A stretch of DNA of 64,000 nt from an uncultured Gemmatimonadales bacterium (lineage in GTDB: Bacteria; Gemmatimonadota; Gemmatimonadetes; Gemmatimonadales; GWC2-71-9). How positions within the stretch are numbered: position 1 is the stretch's first letter; each line of letters starts with the position of its first letter. The stretch is taken from NCBI GenBank assembly GCA_963748815.1, contig CAVVKJ010000008.1, positions 128,001 to 192,000 on the forward strand. Reading direction: 5' to 3'. The notes beneath the pieces are model-generated. The model was not told the DNA's origin. It made no database searches and worked only from the letters and a program-made list of their open reading frames with translations. A program made the position numbers and the translations under genes. Shown here piece after piece: positions 32,470-44,053 of this stretch.

Positions 32470-33765
32470 ATGCTGACGATCCCAGCCGGACGACGGGCAG
32501 CCGTCGTCGCCGGCATGCGGACTCCCTTCGCAAAGAGCGGCACGGCGCTCAAAGACGTCAACGCAGTCACCCTGGCCCGCCACGCCACGAAGGAACTGCT
32601 CTACCGGATGGACCTGTCGGGCGCCGAGGTGGACGAAGTCATCTTCGGGCAGGTCATCCCCTCGGTCCTGGTGCCCAATCTCGCCCGCGAAGTGAGCCTC
32701 CTCCCCCAGTTTCCCAAGACCATCCCCGCCTACTCCCTCAACCGCGCCTGTGCCTCCGGTGCGCAAGCCGTCGTCAACGCCGCCGACCAGATCATGCTTG
32801 GACGGGCCGATGTCGTCGTCGCCGGCGGTGCCGAATCGCTCTCCGACATCCCGATCCTGCATTCCCGGCGATTCAGCGCGCTCCTGGTCGAGGCGAGCAA
32901 GGCGCGGAGCCTCCCCCAGCGACTCGGCGTCCTGTCCCGGGTCAGGCCGCGGGACCTCGTGCCGGTCACCCCCGCGATCGCGGAGCCCTCCACCGGTGAA
33001 TCGATGGGGCAGTCCGCCGAGAAGATGGCGCAGGAAAACGGCATCCGGCGGGAGGACCAGGACCGGATCGCGCTGTTGAGTCACCAGCGGGCCGCCGCCG
33101 CCACGGCCGATGGTCGCCTCACCGCGGAAATCGCCCCCTGGTTCGGGGGCCGCGGGATGGACGACATTCTGGCCAGCGACAACGGCATCCGCGCCGACAC
33201 CTCGCTGGAGGCGCTGGCCAAGCTCAAGCCCGTCTTTGACCGCCGGTACGGGTCGGTCACCGCCGGTAACGCCTCGCCGTTGACCGATGGTGGCGCGGCC
33301 GTGGTGATGATGGCCGACGAGAAGGCGCGCGCCCTTGGCTATCGTCCGCTCGCCACGGTGCGGAGCTACGCCGTGGCGGCGGTGGACCCGGGGTGGCAGC
33401 TCCTCATGGGGCCCGCCATCGCGGTGCCCCGCGCCCTCGAGCGCGCCGGGCTCACCTGGAACGACCTCGGCCTGGTCGAAATTCACGAGGCATTCGCGGC
33501 GCAGGTCCTGTCGAACGTGCAGGCCTGGGGCTCGAAGGCGTGGGCCGATCGCCTCGGCCTTCCCGCTCCGGTGGGTGAGGTCAACTGGGACATCACCAAC
33601 GTGCTCGGCGGCTCGATCGCGATCGGGCATCCCTTCGGCGCCACCGGCGCGCGGATCGTCACCACCCTTGCGAACGAAATGCAGCGCCGGGACGTCCAGT
33701 TCGGGCTGATTTCCATCTGCGCCCAGGGCGGGATGGGGTTCGCCATGGTTCTGGAGCGCGCATGA
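32470..33765 (+). CDS. fadI: Acetyl-CoA C-acyltransferase (thiolase)
   Basis: NRACASG, NASPLTDG, EIHEAFAAQ, GHPFGATG, CAQGGMG. Confidence 0.93.
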   Translation: MLTIPAGRRAAVVAGMRTPFAKSGTALKDVNAVTLARHATKELLYRMDLSGAEVDEVIFGQVIPSVLVPNLAREVSLLPQFPKTIPAYSLNRACASGAQAVVNAADQIMLGRADVVVAGGAESLSDIPILHSRRFSALLVEASKARSLPQRLGVLSRVRPRDLVPVTPAIAEPSTGESMGQSAEKMAQENGIRREDQDRIALLSHQRAAAATADGRLTAEIAPWFGGRGMDDILASDNGIRADTSLEALAKLKPVFDRRYGSVTAGNASPLTDGGAAVVMMADEKARALGYRPLATVRSYAVAAVDPGWQLLMGPAIAVPRALERAGLTWNDLGLVEIHEAFAAQVLSNVQAWGSKAWADRLGLPAPVGEVNWDITNVLGGSIAIGHPFGATGARIVTTLANEMQRRDVQFGLISICAQGGMGFAMVLERA

Positions 33766-35904
33766 GCACCTTTACCGTAGTCGAGGAGCAGGGCGTCGCC
33801 GTCGTCTCCATCGACCAGCCCGGTTCGCCGGTCAACGTCCTCACCGCCGCCGCCAAGTCGGAGTTCGAGACGATCCTCGAACGGCTCCGCGAGGACAAGG
33901 CGGTCCGCGCCGTCGTGCTCATCTCGGGGAAACCCGACAACTTCATTGCCGGCGCCGACATCGAACAGTTCGTGGCGCTCCCCAACCAGGCCGCCGCCGA
34001 GGCGCTCTCGCGCGACGGCCAGGCCACGATGGATCGGGTGGCCGACTTCCCGAAGCCGATCATCGCGGCGATCCACGGCAGCTGCCTCGGGGGCGGGCTC
34101 GAGCTCGCGCTCGCCTGTCACTATCGGCTCGCCACCAACCATCCGAAGACGCAGCTCGGCCTGCCCGAGGTGCAGCTCGGCATCCTGCCCGGCGCCGGCG
34201 GCTGCCAGCGCCTGCCACGCCTCATCGGCGTGCGCGCCGCCCTCGACATCATTCTCGCCGGCAAGTCGGAACGCGCCGCCAAGGCGTTCAAGCTCGGCAT
34301 GGTGGACGAACTGGTGCCGCCGCCGCTCCTGCGCAGCGTCGCGCTCGCCGCCGCGGTGCGCCTGATGTCCTCGGGCGCCCCCCGGCGCGCCCGGCGGGGC
34401 GGCGCCGCAGGGTTCCTCCTCGACGGCAACCCGCTCGGACGAGCCCTCGTCTACCGAATGGCCCGGAAATCGGTGCTGGCCAAGACGGGCGGACACTACC
34501 CGGCGCCGCTCGCGGCGCTCGCGGCGGTCCGCACCGGGATGGAGCGCGGCATGCGCGCGGGGTTCGTCGATGAACACCGCCGGTTCGGCGAACTGGCCGT
34601 CAGTCCCGTCTCCCGGAAGCTCGTGCAGATCTTCTTCGCCACCACCGCCCTCAAGAAGGACGACGGCGTGGCCCCCGGCACCGCCACGCCGCGACCCGTC
34701 CGGCGCCTCGGTGTGGTCGGGTCGGGATTCATGGGGGCGGGGATTGCCGGCACGGCGGTGGCCCAGGCCGGGGTCGAGGTGCGGATGAAGGACGCCGACC
34801 TCGCGCGCGTGGGGAAAGGGCTGAAGGCCTCGACCGGCATCCTCGACGGGCGGCTCAAGCGCCGCCGCATCACCCGGCAGGAACACCAGCGGCTCTCGGC
34901 GCTGCTCAGCGGGGCGGCGGACTTCACCGGGTTCCCCCGCACCGATCTCGTCATCGAGGCGGTGTTCGAGGACCTGACCGTCAAGCGAACCGTCGTCGCG
35001 GAGCTCGAGGCGACGGTCGGCGACGCAGGCGATCATCGCCACCAACACCTCCACCATTCCAATCACCGACATCGCCGCCGGCGCCCACCACCCTGGGCGC
35101 GTGCTGGGGATGCACTTCTTCAGCCCGGTGGATCGGATGCCGCTCCTCGAGGTCATCCCCGGGGCGGCCACCGCGCCGGATGCCATCGCCACCGCGGTGC
35201 AGTTCGGGCGGCGGATGGGGAAGACGGTCATCGTGGTCGCCGACCGCCCCGGCTTCTGGGTCAACCGGATTCTCTCGCCCTACCTCAACGAGGCGGGGCA
35301 CCTGCTGATGGAAGGCACCCCGATCGAGGCGATCGACCGCACCATGACCCGATTCGGCTTCCCGGTCGGCCCGATCGCGCTGCTCGACGAAGTGGGGCTG
35401 GACGTGGCGGCCAAGGGTGGCGGCGTCATGCACCAGGCGTTTGGCGAGCGGCTGACTCCGGCCGACGCCATCGGCAAGATGCTGGCGGACAACCGGCTCG
35501 GCCGGAAGAACGGCCGGGGATTCTACCGCTATGAGGGAGGGAAGAAGGCCGGGGTGGATCATCCGGTGTACCGGCTGCTTTCCATCACGCCGTCCGATCG
35601 CGTCAGCCCGCACACGATCGAGCAGCGCCTGATTTACGCCATGTTGAACGAGGCGGCCATGGCGGCGGGCGAGGGCGTGGTGCGTTCGCCCCGTGACGGC
35701 GACATCGGCGCGATCTTCGGGATCGGCTTCCCGCCCTTCCGCGGCGGCCCCCTCCGGATGATCGACGACCTCGGCGCCGCGCAGGTGGTGTCGACGCTGC
35801 GGGCGCTGGCGGCCGAATTCGGCCCGCGGTTCACACCCGCCGGCTCCCTGGTGGCGATGGCGGAGTCGGGCGGCAGGTTCTACGAGGAAACGAGTTCCCG
35901 TTGA
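33762..35904 (+). CDS. fadJ: Fatty acid oxidation complex alpha subunit (frameshift near 35028)
   Basis: Enoyl-CoA hydratase (FIAGADI, GGGLELALAC, LPEVQLG) plus HAD (GSGFMGAGIA, IEAVFED, GMHFFSPV, PGFWVNRIL). Confidence 0.92.
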
Positions 35905-35927
35905 TTCACTCACACTGGAGTTTGGTC

Positions 35928-37502
35928 ATGCGCAAACTGTGCTTGTTCGCGTTGCTCGGGGCGTTCTTCGCTCCCGTGACATCCGCCTGGGGGCAGGGGT
36001 TCAGCTCCAACGATCCGATCATCAAGCGAATCTGGGCCATGGGGATGGACAGCTCCCAGGTCGGCGCGCTCGCCCAGGTGCTCGACGACTCGATCGGTCC
36101 GCGGCTGACGGGCTCGCCCGGCATGAAGTCGGGCAACGACTGGCTCGTCAAGACGTACGCGCGGTGGGGCATCGGCGCCGAGAACGTCCAGTACGGCACC
36201 TGGAAGGGATGGAAGCGCGGCGCCAGCCACATCGACCTCGTCGCGCCCCGCGTGCGCTCGCTCGAGGGGATGATTCTCGCGTGGAGCCCGGGCACCAAGG
36301 GGAAGCCGGTCGACGGTCCGGCCGTCATTCTCCCGGATGCCGCCGATTCGGCGGCGTTCGCCTCCGCGATCGCGTCGGTCAAGGGCGCCTACGTCCTGAT
36401 CAGCGCGCCGGAACTTACCTGCCGGCCCGACTCGAGCTACAAGGAGTCGGCGCTGCCGGAGGAGTTCGACCGGATGGTCAAGGAGCGCGACGAGTACCGG
36501 GCGGCGTGGGCCGCACGGGTGAAGCGCACCGGGTTGAACAACAAGGCGCTGCAGCTGGCGCTCCAGGGCGCCGGCGCGAAGGGCGTGCTCACCAGTAACT
36601 GGTCACGGGGATGGGGCGTCTTCCGGGTGTTCGACGGCAAGACCACCGAGGTCCCGGCCGCGGTGCTGAGCTGTGAAGACTACGGGCTGGTCTTCCGGCT
36701 CGCGGAGAACCGGCAGGGGCCGGTGCTTCGGGTGACCGCCGACGCGCAAGACCTGGGCGAGGTCCCCGTGTTCAACACCATCGCCACGATCCCCGGCACC
36801 GACCGGGCGGGTGAATACGTCGTGCTGTCCGCCCACTTCGACAGCTGGGACGGGTCCTCCGGCGCCACCGACAACGGCACCGGCACGGTCGTGATGATGG
36901 AGGCGATGCGCATCCTGAAGGCGGTCCTCCCCCGTCCGAGCCGGACCATCATCGTGGGGCACTGGAGCGGCGAGGAGCAGGGGCTGAATGGCTCGCGGGC
37001 CTACATGGCCGACCACCCGAAGGTGGTCGAGGGGCTGCAGGCCCTCTTCAACCAGGACAACGGCACGGGGCGGGTGGCCTACGTGAGCGCCGCGGGGCTG
37101 ATGGAGGCGGGCGGCTTCCTGGCGGACTGGTTCTCGAAAGTGCCGTCCGAGATCACCGGCAACTTCAAGGCCTTCTCGGTGCCTGGCACCCCGGCGGGCG
37201 GCGGCTCCGACAACGCCTCGGTGGCCTGCTATGGCGCGCCGGGCTTCGGCCTCGGCTCGCTGCCCTGGGAGTACTTCTCCTACACCTGGCACACCAACCG
37301 CGACACCTACGACAAGCTGGTGATGAGCGAATTGCGGAACAACGCGACGCTGACCGCCATGCTCGCGTACCAGGCGGCGCAGGACCCGAACACGATCCCG
37401 CGGGACCGCCGCGTGATGCCGATCAACTCGCGCACCGGTGAGCAGCAGACCTGGCCGGAGTGCCAGCCCGCGGCGCGGTCGTTCGCGGAGTACACGCGCT
37501 AG
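35928..37502 (+). CDS. M28-family metallopeptidase (carboxypeptidase Q-like), secreted
   Basis: IGPRLTGS, SAHFDSWD..GATDNGTG, GEEQGLNGS, GGSD, WHTNRDTYD. Confidence 0.9.
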   Translation: MRKLCLFALLGAFFAPVTSAWGQGFSSNDPIIKRIWAMGMDSSQVGALAQVLDDSIGPRLTGSPGMKSGNDWLVKTYARWGIGAENVQYGTWKGWKRGASHIDLVAPRVRSLEGMILAWSPGTKGKPVDGPAVILPDAADSAAFASAIASVKGAYVLISAPELTCRPDSSYKESALPEEFDRMVKERDEYRAAWAARVKRTGLNNKALQLALQGAGAKGVLTSNWSRGWGVFRVFDGKTTEVPAAVLSCEDYGLVFRLAENRQGPVLRVTADAQDLGEVPVFNTIATIPGTDRAGEYVVLSAHFDSWDGSSGATDNGTGTVVMMEAMRILKAVLPRPSRTIIVGHWSGEEQGLNGSRAYMADHPKVVEGLQALFNQDNGTGRVAYVSAAGLMEAGGFLADWFSKVPSEITGNFKAFSVPGTPAGGGSDNASVACYGAPGFGLGSLPWEYFSYTWHTNRDTYDKLVMSELRNNATLTAMLAYQAAQDPNTIPRDRRVMPINSRTGEQQTWPECQPAARSFAEYTR

Positions 37503-37529: not shown

Positions 37530-37557
37530 ACGAGGCGTCCCATCCGGGGCGCCTCGT
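37530..37557. terminator. Hairpin between convergent genes
   Basis: ACGAGGCGTCCC-ATCC-GGGGCGCCTCGT. Confidence 0.65.
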
Positions 37558-37583: not shown

Positions 37584-38714
37584 CTAGCGCGTCAGCGTCG
37601 GGATCAGTTCTTCGTTGGTCTTGGCGCCACGGAAGAGGGAAAGCAGGTCCTGCATCGCGTTGATGGAGGGCATCCCCGCCGTGCGCTGCCGCAGGGCGTG
37701 GGAGGCCGCCAGCGCCTCGGGGGAAAAGAGCAGTTCTTCCCGCCGGGTGGAGCTCGCCGGGATGTCGATGGCGGGGTAGATACGCCGCTCCGCCAGCTCG
37801 CGGCTCAGCACCAGCTCGCTGTTGCCGGTTCCCTTGAACTCCTCGAAAATGACCTGGTCCATCTTCGATCCGGTGTCCACCAGCGCGGTGGCGATGATGG
37901 TCAGCGACCCGCCGCCGCGCGACGGGTCGACGTACCGGGCACTGCCGAGAAAGCGCTTGGGCTTTTCCATCGCGTTGGCGTCGAGGCCGCCGGACAACGT
38001 CCGGCCGGTGCCCCGTTCCAGCGTGTTGTAGGCCCGCGCAAGGCGCGTGATCGAATCGAGGATGATGACCGAATCCCGGCCGAGTTCCACTTGGCGCCGG
38101 GCCCGTTCCAGCGTGAGTTCCGCGACTTCGGCGTGGCGTTCGGCCGGCTGGTCGAAGCTCGAGGCCACCACCTCGCCCGCCCCCGCCATCTCCATCTCCG
38201 TCACTTCCTCCGGCCGCTCGTCGACCAGCAGGATGAAGAGCTGCGCGGCGGGATGGTTGCGAGCGACGCCCTCGGCCACCGCCTGCAGCACCGTGGTCTT
38301 GCCCGCCTTGGCGGGAGCGACGATGAGTGCGCGCTGTCCCTTGCCGAAGGGGCAGAGCAGGTCGATGAGCCGGGTGATTTCATGGGCGGTGCGCCGGGTG
38401 CCGGGGGGCACCTCGAGCGTGAGCATTTCCTTCGGGTGCGTCGCGGGAAGTTTCGAAAATTCGGGGCGCCGCGCGATCTCCTCGGGCGCGAGCCCGTTGA
38501 CCGTGGTCACCTTCTGGAGACTGGGACCGCGCCCCTTGCCGCCACGCCCCCCCTCACCGGCGATTTCATCGCCGGTGCGGAGGCCGTACTGCTTCACGAG
38601 ATGGGGGGGGACGAAGAGGTCGCCATCGGCCGGCGCATAGGCCGATTCACGGCGTCGTATGAAGGCGGTCCCGCGGTCCGTCAGTTCCAGGATGCCCAGG
38701 AGGGTATCGCTCAC
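37584..38714 (-). CDS. rho: Transcription termination factor Rho, short paralog (376 aa)
   Basis: GTG 38714 overlaps the upstream [65 protein letters not shown]. Confidence 0.92.
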
Positions 38715-39142
38715 TGCGCCCCGGCGTCCCAGGAATCCCACGTCAGATGACAGCGTGTCACGAAGTACTCCGGCGGATGGCCTGTGCGCTCCAGCAAGTC
38801 GTGGAGCATCTCGTGGCGAACGACCATTTCGTTCCCCACGTAGGCGCCGGCGATGGTGATCCGGGAGACGTTGCCGACCCGCTCCCAGAGACCCACCTTC
38901 TCGCCGATGCTCGTCTCGAAAGTAGCGACGTCGGGCACCACATACCACTCGATGCCCTCCATCGCGCCGCGCAGCTCGGCGCACGCCTCGGTGCGGGCGT
39001 ACCAGGTGGCATACTCGGCGGGAGCGGTCATCAGGACGGCGCCCTCGGGGGGGGCGCTCGGTTCGAGGCCGGTGCACGACGCCGCGACCAGCCAGATGGC
39101 CATGACGGGTACGAGGCGATGGGGAACGGATGCTGGGCGCAT
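38711..39142 (-). CDS. Hypothetical lipoprotein with HExxH motif
   Basis: Lipobox-like VAASC; VVRHEMLHDLL...HPPEYF; GGAGA RBS at 39151-39147. Confidence 0.75.
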   Translation of the reverse strand: MRPASVPHRLVPVMAIWLVAASCTGLEPSAPPEGAVLMTAPAEYATWYARTEACAELRGAMEGIEWYVVPDVATFETSIGEKVGLWERVGNVSRITIAGAYVGNEMVVRHEMLHDLLERTGHPPEYFVTRCHLTWDSWDAGAQ

Positions 39143-39223
39143 GGTGTCTCCACAACGCCCGATAAGCTCAAGGCCATGGGATCGCTTTCCCGGAGGGAAG
39201 GGTGTCCTGGCCCCGCTTCTCTG

Positions 39224-39320
39224 CCTGCCTTCGGCACCGAGCTATCTCCGGCCCATTCGGGCCTGAGACCTCAAGTTTTGCGGCCCCGGATCACTCCGGG
39301 TGTGCTCTTATCGGGCGGGT
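39224..39320 (-). ncRNA. c-di-GMP-I (GEMM-I) class riboswitch, A20 (cGAMP-type) variant
   Basis: - strand CCCGCCCG-ATAAG-A-GCACA-CCCGGA-GTGA-TCCGGG-GCCGCAAAAC-TTGAGGTCTC..GGCCC-GAAT-GGGCC..GAGATAGCTCGG-TGCCGAAGGCAGG. It has a GNRA-capped P2, CGCAAA junction, P3 and 3' GCCGA. Confidence 0.85.
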
Positions 39321-39519
39321 CGTTGGTGGACTGCGGAAGGGGTAGAACGCAAGTCCGGGGCCGACCAGCCCCGAGATGGCCTAAGTTGAACAGGCGGCTC
39401 CGCTTAGCCGGGGTGATTTGTCCGGAACTTGTTGTCCTGACATAGTTTAGGTAGCTTCGTGGCGATGCCCGGGCGCGCCGCCCAGGCCGCTATGGACCCC
39501 CGTCGAGGGACACCTGCTG

Positions 39520-40455
39520 ATGATGCGCACCTTCCTACTGTGGCTGTCGGAGCAACAGGGTGTGTTCAACTTCCTGCGGCGCAATGGCCTCGCCCGAAAG
39601 TTCGCCAGCCGCTTCGTGGCGGGGGAAACACGGGAGACCGCCACGGCGGCGGCGCTCGAATTGAAGACCCTCGGGATCATGACGACGCTGGACCTCCTGG
39701 GGGAGAGCGTCAACCTGCCGGCCGATGCGATCGCGGCCCGCGACGAGTACCTGCGCATGCTCGACGGGCTCGCCGCCAGCGGCGCCGACATCAACGTGTC
39801 GGTCAAGCTCACCCAGATGGGCTTCGACATCGACGAGGCGCTCTGCCTCGACAACATGCGGCGCATCCTGGCCAAGGCGCGCGACCTCGGCGGCTTTGTC
39901 CGCCTCGACATGGAGAGCTCGGAATACACGCAGCGCACTCTCGATTTCTTCGAGCGGCACCTGCTCGCCGAGTTCGGCAGGCACACTGGCGTCGTCATCC
40001 AGTCCTGCCTCCGCCGCTCCACCGCGGATGTGCAGCGGCTCATCGGGCTCGGCGCGCGGGTGCGCCTCTGCAAAGGGGCCTACCTCGAGTCCCCCGACGT
40101 CGCCTTTCCGGACAAGAAGGACGTGGACCGGCAGTTCATCGCGTTGATGGAGGACCTCCTCCGGCACGGCAACTATCCCGGCATCGCCACGCACGACAAC
40201 CGGATGCTCGAGCATGCCCGGGCCTTCGTGACCCGTGAGGGGATTCCGGCCGACCGCTTCGAGTTCCAGATGCTCTTCGGCGTGCGGCGCGACCTGCAGG
40301 AGCGACTCCGCAAGGACGGCTTCAACATGCGGGTGTACATCCCGTTCGGCACCCAGTGGTATCCGTACCTGATGCGCCGGCTCGCCGAGCGCCCGGCCAA
40401 TATCGTCTTCATCTTCGGCAACGTGGTTCGCGAGACGCTCGCCTTGAAGGGTTGA
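39520..40455 (+). CDS. putB: Monofunctional proline dehydrogenase
   Basis: RFVAGET, LDLLGE, SVKLTQMG, RLDMES, VRLCKGAYLE, IATHD, FEFQMLFG, YLMRRLAERPAN. Confidence 0.93.
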   Translation: MMRTFLLWLSEQQGVFNFLRRNGLARKFASRFVAGETRETATAAALELKTLGIMTTLDLLGESVNLPADAIAARDEYLRMLDGLAASGADINVSVKLTQMGFDIDEALCLDNMRRILAKARDLGGFVRLDMESSEYTQRTLDFFERHLLAEFGRHTGVVIQSCLRRSTADVQRLIGLGARVRLCKGAYLESPDVAFPDKKDVDRQFIALMEDLLRHGNYPGIATHDNRMLEHARAFVTREGIPADRFEFQMLFGVRRDLQERLRKDGFNMRVYIPFGTQWYPYLMRRLAERPANIVFIFGNVVRETLALKG

Positions 40456-42363: not shown

Positions 42364-44053
42364 GTGACGCGTCCCCTCCGGTTCGGTGCGGTGGATCGCC
42401 TGCTGCCTGCCCTCCTCCTGTCGGCTGTCTCGGGGCTCGCCTGTGCGTCCCCCCCCGCGCCGGCGACCACCGTGGCGTTCGGCCGGGTCTGGACCGGGAA
42501 CCCCGATCAGCCCTGGGCCGGCGGCGTGGCCATGCGCGGGGACACGCTCGTGGGCGTGGGCGACAGCAGTGACGTGGCCCGCTTCGTCGGCGAGCAGACC
42601 GTGGTGGTCGCCGCGCCGGGCGGGATGGTCGTCCCCGGATTCATGGATGGCCACACCCATTTTCTCGACGGCGGCATCCAGCTCGTCAGCGTGGACCTGC
42701 GGACCGCCGATTCGCCCGAGGAGTTCACCGCCCGGATCGCGGCGTTTGCCGCGGAACGGAAGCCGGGTGAGTGGATCATCGGCGGCGACTGGGACCACGA
42801 GCGGTGGCCGGGCACGCCCCTCCCCACCCGCGCGTGGATCGACTCGGTGACGCCGAACAATCCCGTCTTCGTGAACCGGCTCGACGGACACATGGGCGTG
42901 GCCAACAGCGCGGCGCTGCGCGCGGCGGGCATCACCAGGTCCACCCAGGACATCCCAGGCGGGGAGATCGTCCGGGATCCGCGCACCGGGGAGCCGACCG
43001 GCATCCTCAAGGACAACGCGATGCGCCCGGTGTACGCGGCCCTGCCGCCGCCGAGCGAGGCGCAACTCGACGCCGCCCTGGCGCGCGCCGTGGCGTTCGC
43101 GGCAAGCAAGGGTGTCACGGCCACCAACTTCATGAGCGCGCCCACCGCCTGGCTCGGCGCCTTCCAGCGTGCCCGCGCGGCCGGCACGCTGACCGTCCGG
43201 ACCAAGATGTTCTTCCCGATCCAGGCCGTGGCAGTGGGTGGCGGACACCGTCGCGGCCATCGGACCCGGTGACGACTGGCTCCGGATCGACGGGGTGAAG
43301 GGGTACATGGACGGCTCGCTCGGCTCGACGACAGCCCTGCTTTTCCGCCCCTACCGCGACGCGCCGAACACCCGCGGCCTGGAGACCACGCCGCTCGACT
43401 CGATCCGGCGCTGGGTGCAGTCCGCCGACTCGGCGCAGCTCCAGGTGGCCATTCACGCCATCGGCGACCGCGCCAACGCCCTGCTCCTCGACACCTTCGA
43501 CTCCGTGACGGTCGCCAACGGGGCCCGCGACCGCCGCTTCCGCATCGAGCACGCGCAGCACCTCCGGCCCGAGGACATCACCCGCATCGCGAAGATGAAC
43601 GTCATCCCCTCGATGCAGCCCTATCACATCATCGACGACGGCCGTTGGGCCGCCAAGCGGATCGACACCCTCCTCCTGCAGACCACCTACGCCTTTCGGA
43701 CCCTGATCGACGACGGCGCGCACCTGGAGTTCGGCTCCGACTGGACGGTGGCGCCCCTCGACCCGCTGCTGGGCATCTACGCCGCGGTCACCAGGCGGAC
43801 GCTCGACGACAAGAACCCCGGCGGGTGGTTCGCGGCGCAGAAGGTCACCGTGGACGAGGCGCTGCGCGCCTATACCGCGGAAAACGCCTACGGGGTCTTC
43901 GCGGAGGGCCGCCGGGGCGTGTTGAAGCCTGGCATGCGGGCCGACCTGGTGCTGCTCGACCGGGACGTGACCGCCATCGACCCGGTCGACATTCCGAAGA
44001 CACAGGTTCTGGCCACCATCGCCGGCGGGCAAGTGGTGTACCGGGCGCCCTGA
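42364..44053 (+). CDS. Amidohydrolase family 3 (YtcJ-like), frameshift near 43230
   Basis: PGFMDGHTH, DGHMGVANSAAL, KGYMDGSLGS, IHAIGDRAN, RIEHAQH, FGSDW. Confidence 0.9.

Follow-up and report, generated by a model that had tools for sequence, protein, structure and literature searches.

The stretch analysed here is a window of 64,000 nucleotides (nt) from an uncultured Gemmatimonadales bacterium (assembly GCA_963748815.1, contig CAVVKJ010000008.1, positions 128,001 to 192,000). On its minus strand, a GEMM-I riboswitch aptamer precedes a gene for a probable lipoprotein and a short paralog of the gene for the termination factor Rho, here called rho2 (Table 1). A cmscan of the whole window returned two matches only: one tRNA and one match to RF01051, the Rfam model c-di-GMP-I for riboswitches of cyclic di-GMP (c-di-GMP). 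The latter, at 39316-39230, scores 53.8 bits (gathering score 35; E = 1e-7) and spans the full model length (1-87), which bears out the initial annotation of a GEMM-I aptamer with an A at 39306 on this strand. In the model alignment, A39306 stands at the first G of the consensus GGCAAA, and C39234 is the C on the partner side, which we take to be position 92 in Vc2 numbering. Helix P1 probably extends to about 39321/39222. The aptamer is located in the 5′ leader, 88 nt before the AUG of the lipoprotein gene, and a conserved anti-P1 element adjoins the Shine-Dalgarno (SD) sequence. The aptamer very probably binds a cyclic-dinucleotide ligand.

The base at 39306 is called A20 below; G20 of Vc2 corresponds to A14 of Gs1761 (PMC6140456). 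All 33 aptamers of the genus have A20 and C24. Among 99 aptamers from sixty-one related genomes, A20 is found in sixty-seven and G20 in thirty, with two unreadable. In one relative (L063:2927-3001, genome G027), an A20/C24 aptamer precedes a lipoprotein relative by about 760 nt, and the aptamer's best model is c-di-GMP-I-GGC (RF03167; 59.5 against a cut-off of 59).

The 143-residue protein has HEMLH at residues 110-114 and Cys23 behind a hydrophobic stretch. Both its lipobox and the name lipoprotein were assigned by eye, and no Pfam or NCBIfam family was found for it. Relatives were surveyed at the best 80 of 181 loci; all eighty have the HExxH motif and the later His, and named look-alikes score just 0.80-0.81. 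As the initial annotation had read it, the TGA of this gene overlaps the GTG of the rho paralog as GTGA (38714-38711). The overlap and the rho start are identical in 16/16 aligned loci of the genus, though the last codons of the lipoprotein vary. GTGA also occurs in two records from a sister lineage (L191 and L192), in which the lipoprotein is 66 per cent and Rho 79-80 per cent identical, and in four metagenome contigs (of eighty loci examined). The start of rho2 is preceded by a weak SD-like GGGG only. Because the stop/start overlap is conserved, translational coupling from the lipoprotein gene to rho2 is plausible. A frameshifted lipoprotein-Rho fusion was ruled out, as both frames and the overlap are identical in 16/16 loci.

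The product of rho2 scores 449 bits, over a cut-off of 315, against the NCBIfam Rho profile PRK09376, with the match beginning at profile position 53; residue 7 of rho2 aligns with residue 53 of Escherichia coli Rho at this match start. A domain search found the RNA-binding domain PF07497 (E = 4e-14) and the ATPase domain PF00006 (E = 1e-24) and no match to Rho_N (PF07498). Aligned with E. coli Rho, the motifs AKAGKT (Walker A), DERPEE, LDSITR, and TRREE are intact. RNP1, which is GFGF in published Rho (PMC11347177), reads GTAF in rho2, and the loop following the third strand also differs; because of these two changes, the RNA preference of rho2 may differ. A full-length Rho of 415 residues with Rho_N, 52 per cent identical to rho2, is encoded elsewhere in the genome (G000 C10:1155524). 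Codon comparisons with seven relatives gave 118-128 synonymous against 14-40 non-synonymous differences; this purifying selection ruled out rho2 as a pseudogene. The initial annotation had called the protein a truncated Rho. It is indeed short at its N-terminus, but 'truncated' gives way to 'naturally short', given the identical start and overlap in 16/16 genus loci. By its domains, rho2 fits the Rho of type 4 / group B, with neither an N-terminal domain nor a long replacement region and with a full-length Rho also present. Its likeliest role would be that of an active Rho whose primary RNA-binding site is altered, acting by itself or as part of mixed hexamers.

Table 1. Features of the switch-lipoprotein-rho2 locus and its surroundings, in window coordinates.
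Feature	Coordinates	Strand	Basis or remark
GEMM-I (c-di-GMP-I, RF01051) aptamer, A20 (39306), C24	39230..39316	-	53.8 bits
Segment A: 5′ strand of P1 and junction before A20	39307..39317	-	Invariant in 16/16 genus leaders; pairs with B in the ligand-free minimum free energy (MFE) fold
Variable spacer hairpin, aptamer to segment B	39171..39213	-	No U-tract terminator detected
Segment B: anti-P1, 11-nt exact complement of A, 4 nt before the SD	39156..39166	-	Invariant in 16/16
SD sequence GGAG of the lipoprotein gene	39148..39151	-	Sequence, leader alignment, fold
Segment C: AUG with the five bases after it (Met-Arg-Pro), a complement of B's 3′ half	39135..39142	-	Invariant in 16/16
Probable lipoprotein, 143 residues, HExxH...GH zinc-peptidase-like motif	38711..39142	-	Open reading frame; Gemmatimonadota family without Pfam name
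GTGA stop/start overlap, candidate translational coupling	38711..38714	-	Lipoprotein TGA and rho GTG
Short-form Rho paralog (type 4 / group B), 376 residues, GTG start	37584..38714	-	ATPase motifs retained; RNP1 = GTAF
Hairpin separating rho from the convergent gene for an M28 peptidase	37530..37557	.	Terminator score on + strand only

Conservation and folding of the leader

The genome of this locus (G000) is 86 per cent complete. In it and in fifteen of sixteen other genomes of the genus (16/17), the switch, the lipoprotein gene, and the short rho are adjacent. The exception, G005 (88 per cent complete, 420 contigs), had a match to neither protein. Switch, gene order, and overlap are also kept in the two sister-lineage records. 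Further out the picture changes. Within the lipoprotein survey, twenty-eight loci have the switch and sixteen have rho, and all sixteen with rho have the switch. At rho-paralog loci of other genera, by contrast, 0/15 scanned gave an Rfam match (eighteen were fetched). Eighty metagenome loci of the same aptamer subfamily have downstream a STAS-domain gene (52), the lipoprotein alone (6), lipoprotein and rho (4), or another gene (10), and eight were too short. Because the link to rho breaks outside the lineage in these counts, the broad partners of the switch are STAS and lipoprotein genes, and rho2 is a lineage-limited member.

Three segments of the leader (A, B, and C) are invariant across sixteen leaders of the genus, whereas the spacer varies. 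The A-B duplex is worth -21.1 kcal/mol, matched by 0/100 shuffles, and the ligand-free MFE fold that includes it lies 8.5-11.5 kcal/mol below the fold in which P1 is forced. Forcing P1 with a 5′ end of 39324 or 39321 lets B pair with C, in a hairpin that encloses the SD and AUG and has a local fold of -14.6 kcal/mol. We compared the predicted cost of opening the ribosome site in the two states. In a first set, forty-five loci were examined, of which six lacked the pattern and thirty-nine were scored; the site is costlier to open in the ligand-bound model at 37/39 (+4.2 kcal/mol at this locus, median +2.8 kcal/mol). A second set gave the same direction at 17/17 scored loci (forty examined, including two repeats from the first). 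Before unrelated genes, at fourteen loci, 92 per cent of B-C cells are paired, against 25-52 per cent when the segments are slid.

A minimal form of the switch occurs in genus g36 (L292-L302, L304-L310), where the SD and AUG of a STAS gene stand directly behind the aptamer and the SD lies in the P1 extension, paired with the aptamer 5′ strand. This pairing was seen at 17/18 loci, those that could be folded (the other lies at a contig edge); the duplex has a bulged A, with matching changes on both strands between genomes. As modelled, the g36 architecture would give the same OFF polarity by another route. Because the conserved segments, the fold energies, the opening test, and the g36 architecture agree, we favour translational OFF control: the leader is likely to be a three-segment OFF switch, and folding predicts that its effect on the lipoprotein and rho2 is most likely repression, not induction. 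An intrinsic terminator in the leader was rejected, as a terminator scan found none on the minus strand.

The genome's only other GEMM-I switch (G000:C5:308472-308556, L002:1501-1996) is A20/C24 with the same A-B-C design and heads a gene for a 104-residue STAS-domain protein, followed by a gene for a single receiver domain. A group of aptamers of this subfamily (L334, L344, L350, L356, L367, L375, and L382) uses another platform, a long GC hairpin, and the genes behind it encode signal-peptide-like proteins, neither STAS nor this lipoprotein.

Cyclases and the candidate ligand

The initial annotation had suggested cGAMP (3′,3′-cyclic GMP-AMP) as a possible ligand on account of A20, with the caution that A20 alone does not guarantee selectivity. 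Published A20 aptamers range from about 1200-1600-fold selective for cGAMP to bispecific (PMC6456294, PMC8835794, PMC6140456), and for both Cbe 1-2 and the G20A mutant of Vc2 the affinity for c-di-GMP equals or exceeds that for cGAMP (30 versus 463 nM for Cbe 1-2; PMC6140456).

Hypr cyclases have Ser or Thr where canonical GGDEF enzymes have Asp (PMC6456294, PMC9140294). A genome search for such enzymes or other cGAMP synthases did not find the expected types. The Ser/Thr residue appears in 0/12 GGDEF matches of G000 and in 0/37 of four genus genomes that are 95-98 per cent complete, and the corresponding DNA pattern in 0/6 genus genomes. Neither a SMODS-family cyclase (0/5) nor a c-di-AMP cyclase of the DAC family (0/5) was found in the genus genomes searched. 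Across the order, the Ser/Thr pattern occurs in 56/301 Gemmatimonadales genomes, where 27/30 checked matches are true GGDEF domains; as a control, the canonical Asp pattern is present in 61/61 relatives.

We then considered the family, which comprises 137 genomes; kin genomes are not independent in the per-genome counts that follow, so that Fisher values computed from these are inflated. The A20/C24 subfamily of this locus co-occurs with the Hypr pattern in 4/60 genomes (one a false match), compared with 34/77 genomes without the subfamily. A different subfamily, A20/A24, co-occurs with it in 22/32. Counted by genus, the figures are 2/17 for the subfamily of this locus and 8/14 for A20/A24. 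Three genomes flagged as unpublished enter the tallies: G030 contributes one G20 aptamer and an Asp control; G107 is counted as an A20/C24 genome, for one direct-SD locus among the eighteen, and for one Asn match; and G226 adds one Hypr match. The conclusions are independent of all three. In other genera of the family (L258-L286; G061, G062, G079, G093, and others), the Hypr-type GGDEF proteins have Ser at the specificity position and the motif GGDEF. The Hypr-associated A20/A24 aptamers are often multi-copy or tandem, a candidate cGAMP pathway in Gemmatimonadota.

What the genus does have at the Hypr position is Asn, in one protein per genome in 4/5 genus genomes read. In G000 this protein (C5:396278-397984, L038) joins 4Fe-4S, Fe-hydrogenase-like, and FeS-GGDEF parts and has the motif GGDEF. 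Its pattern occurs in 117/136 family genomes versus 4/164 outside the family. It is possibly a redox-sensing cyclase of unusual specificity.

Given that the affinity of A20 aptamers for c-di-GMP can equal or exceed that for cGAMP, we consider c-di-GMP the likelier signal and probably the ligand in vivo, through a bispecific A20 pocket. Of the earlier suggestion, A20 itself stands, and the cGAMP label is probably wrong: it is weakened by the finding of the Ser/Thr Hypr pattern in 0/6 and of SMODS in 0/5 genus genomes and by a subfamily that avoids Hypr genomes.

Proposed regulation and its rivals

Tentatively, we favour a reading in which the A20 GEMM-I riboswitch controls translation of a candidate two-gene operon (lipoprotein and short Rho) and is OFF at high c-di-GMP. 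At low signal, segment A would pair with the invariant segment B and P1 would be blocked, leaving the SD and AUG relatively open and the lipoprotein translated. Ribosomes finishing at its TGA would restart at the overlapping GTG of rho2. At high signal, the ligand would lock A into the aptamer and B would pair with the first codons (C), burying the SD and AUG. Both proteins would then fall, possibly with extra Rho-dependent polarity on the untranslated message. The early lipoprotein gene has 44 C and 29 G per 100 nt, an excess of C over G too weak for a rut call.

Several observations weigh against this reading. The evidence for switching comes from equilibrium folding throughout. The opening test favours OFF whenever upstream sequence pairs with B and was run without a random control for the difference. 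For a transcript that begins at 39336 or upstream of it, the SD is paired in the ligand-free fold too, so that it would be buried in both states. At this locus, 45/200 synonymous shuffles are equally stable for B-C (across loci, ten or fewer of 200 are as stable in 19/39), and B-C covariation is not significant, with 90/500 shuffles reaching the observed value; RNAalifold on eight leaders gave a covariation term of 0.06. A sigma-70 promoter scan of the leader found 0 sites. Among nine expression runs just 5-9 per cent of words were present, and four, all contigs of relatives, were compared at 80 per cent likeness. The junction of lipoprotein and rho is bridged by X1 record 6 and X7 record 27, that of switch and lipoprotein by X1 record 8 and X2 record 13; no record covers the whole candidate operon, a DNA origin is possible, and the records are not counted as evidence. 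Finally, because STAS is the commonest target of the switch (52/80 versus 4/80), rho may be a late passenger.

In a doubtful rival reading, the switch regulates the lipoprotein alone and rho2 is a rearranged-in neighbour with its own promoter or start, its level independent of the signal. The locus counts speak for it: rho accompanies sixteen lipoprotein loci against twenty-eight for the switch, and rho paralogs outside the genus lack the switch at every locus scanned. The genes for proline dehydrogenase (proDH), the M28 peptidase, the lipoprotein, and rho2 are also reshuffled elsewhere, as in the head-to-head rho2 and proDH of G023. What such a neighbour would not lead one to expect is an exact GTGA that survives down to 66 per cent lipoprotein and 79 per cent Rho identity in L191 and L192 (although the last lipoprotein codons vary in the genus), nor a switch at all sixteen lipoprotein-rho loci, and the SD of rho2 itself is weak. 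We think it quite probable that the rho2 level follows the switch. The initial annotation had proposed that a second messenger controls an alternative Rho through coupling; the coupling remains plausible, being conserved in 16/16 loci, two sister records, and four contigs, and the link to rho is limited to the lineage.

The polarity and the ligand of the favoured OFF switch each have a rival as well. An ON switch, in which the ligand-free A-B helix would block the ribosome and the ligand release it, was our initial guess; it was dropped after the folding, the opening tests, and the g36 architecture and is kept here as a distinctly improbable alternative. The A-B helix stops 4 nt short of the SD, a 5′ end at 39336 has the SD paired to upstream sequence in the ligand-free fold, and the Geobacter reporters are ON switches (PMC6456294). 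The upstream bases in question vary among genus members, though, freed B pairs over the SD and AUG at nearly all loci, and the sister architecture has its SD within P1. The remaining rival keeps the same architecture and replaces the ligand with cGAMP from a non-canonical cyclase, for example the Asn FeS-GGDEF protein. A20 is fixed in 33/33 genus aptamers, and A20G turns a Geobacter aptamer from cGAMP to c-di-GMP; the motif of the Asn protein is the GGDEF form compatible with a short residue (both PMC6456294); and the Asn pattern and the aptamer subfamily are concentrated in and confined to the same family, respectively. Against this, Ser or Thr, not Asn, is named for Hypr enzymes in PMC9140294; the Asn protein is family-wide, also in genomes without the aptamer, and does not track it; the subfamily is rarely found beside the Hypr pattern; and five genus genomes have neither SMODS nor DAC enzymes. 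We regard the cGAMP version as unlikely, a little more so than control of the lipoprotein alone.

Known systems and neighbouring sequences

The arrangement holds up and is conserved within one lineage, and it joins known parts in a combination that we have not found described. The initial annotation knew of no described case of a riboswitch-lipoprotein-rho arrangement, and our literature search, largely confined to open-access papers, likewise gave no example of a rho gene with a riboswitch upstream. What comes closest is the repression of rho by RNAIII in Staphylococcus aureus and the action of Rho on leaders. RNAIII resembles the present case in that an external signal lowers Rho through blocked translation (bioRxiv 10.1101/2025.07.24.666493), but it is a trans-acting small RNA on the sole rho, whereas here a cis riboswitch would act on a paralog via an upstream gene. 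Riboswitches that work through Rho, and the flgB leader of Clostridioides difficile (PMC7446863), on which Rho acts, likewise combine regulatory RNA with Rho in a single circuit; in those cases Rho is the effector, and here the rho gene would be the regulated output.

On the aptamer side, this RNA shares with the A20 'GEMM-Ib' variants of RF01051 (Gs1761, Gm0970, Cbe 1-2) a full-length model match with A20. It differs in having C24, the GxGA/GCAAAA loop-receptor form, a host without a Ser/Thr Hypr cyclase, and a platform predicted to turn translation OFF with the help of the first codons, and its downstream gene is for a termination factor rather than cytochromes or pili. On the protein side, rho2 is like the type 4 / group B Rho of PMC11347177 and NF041509 (paralog_Rho2, 'Rho, short form'): Rho_N is missing, the RNA-binding and ATPase domains and the catalytic residues are kept, and a full-length Rho stands beside it. 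Its 417.2 bits against NF041509 fall under the cut-off of 628. PMC11347177 tallies fifty-eight sequences of type 4, counts 116 genomes in which rho is present twice, raises hetero-hexamers as a possibility, and proposes modified RNA binding for type 4 / group B, with no function given; its main text has neither 'riboswitch' nor 'Gemmat', whereas rho2 here sits under a second-messenger switch.

N-terminally short second rho genes are widespread and their role is unexplained (PMC11347177). This locus gives a regulatory handle on one of them: the signal is named, the direction is predicted (production at low c-di-GMP), and a gene of the STAS anti-anti-sigma type, under the genome's other GEMM-I switch, is a co-regulated partner. 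If the proposed regulation is true, a second messenger governs the supply of a global termination factor. A more speculative extension, in which we place little confidence, is that a cyclic dinucleotide sets, by way of the riboswitch and the coupling, the amount of an alternative Rho whose primary RNA site differs from that of the housekeeping Rho, acting as homo-hexamers with a specificity of their own or as mixed hexamers that tune the housekeeping Rho, and with feedback on the switch's own untranslated message, so that the termination landscape would shift with lifestyle. In its boldest form, the signal would be cGAMP, made by the Asn-type FeS-GGDEF protein as a redox sensor. Only one genus and a sister lineage, known here from genome assemblies alone, have the link to rho, which may be a recent capture. 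The split of A20 aptamers in one order into Hypr-associated and Hypr-avoiding subfamilies offers a natural test set for cGAMP selectivity beyond A20.

The locus is flanked by a divergent gene for a monofunctional proDH (39520-40455, plus strand) and a convergent gene for an M28 peptidase (35901-37502, plus strand). In other genera of the family, these two genes, the lipoprotein gene, and rho2 are reshuffled neighbours, with proDH and M28 recurring near the lipoprotein gene or rho2; the cassette is not present where rho2 and proDH stand head to head in G023. Between proDH and the switch, the block at 39420-39470 is conserved genus-wide with variable flanks and is possibly the promoter/operator of one divergent unit. 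Some genes are split by frameshifts, probably assembly indels: those at 33762-35904 and 42364-44053 of the window, L002:3-1130, and GGDEF genes on C10 and C17 of G000. By eye, we named split genes as fadB-like, amidohydrolase-like, and acetyl-CoA synthetase-like.
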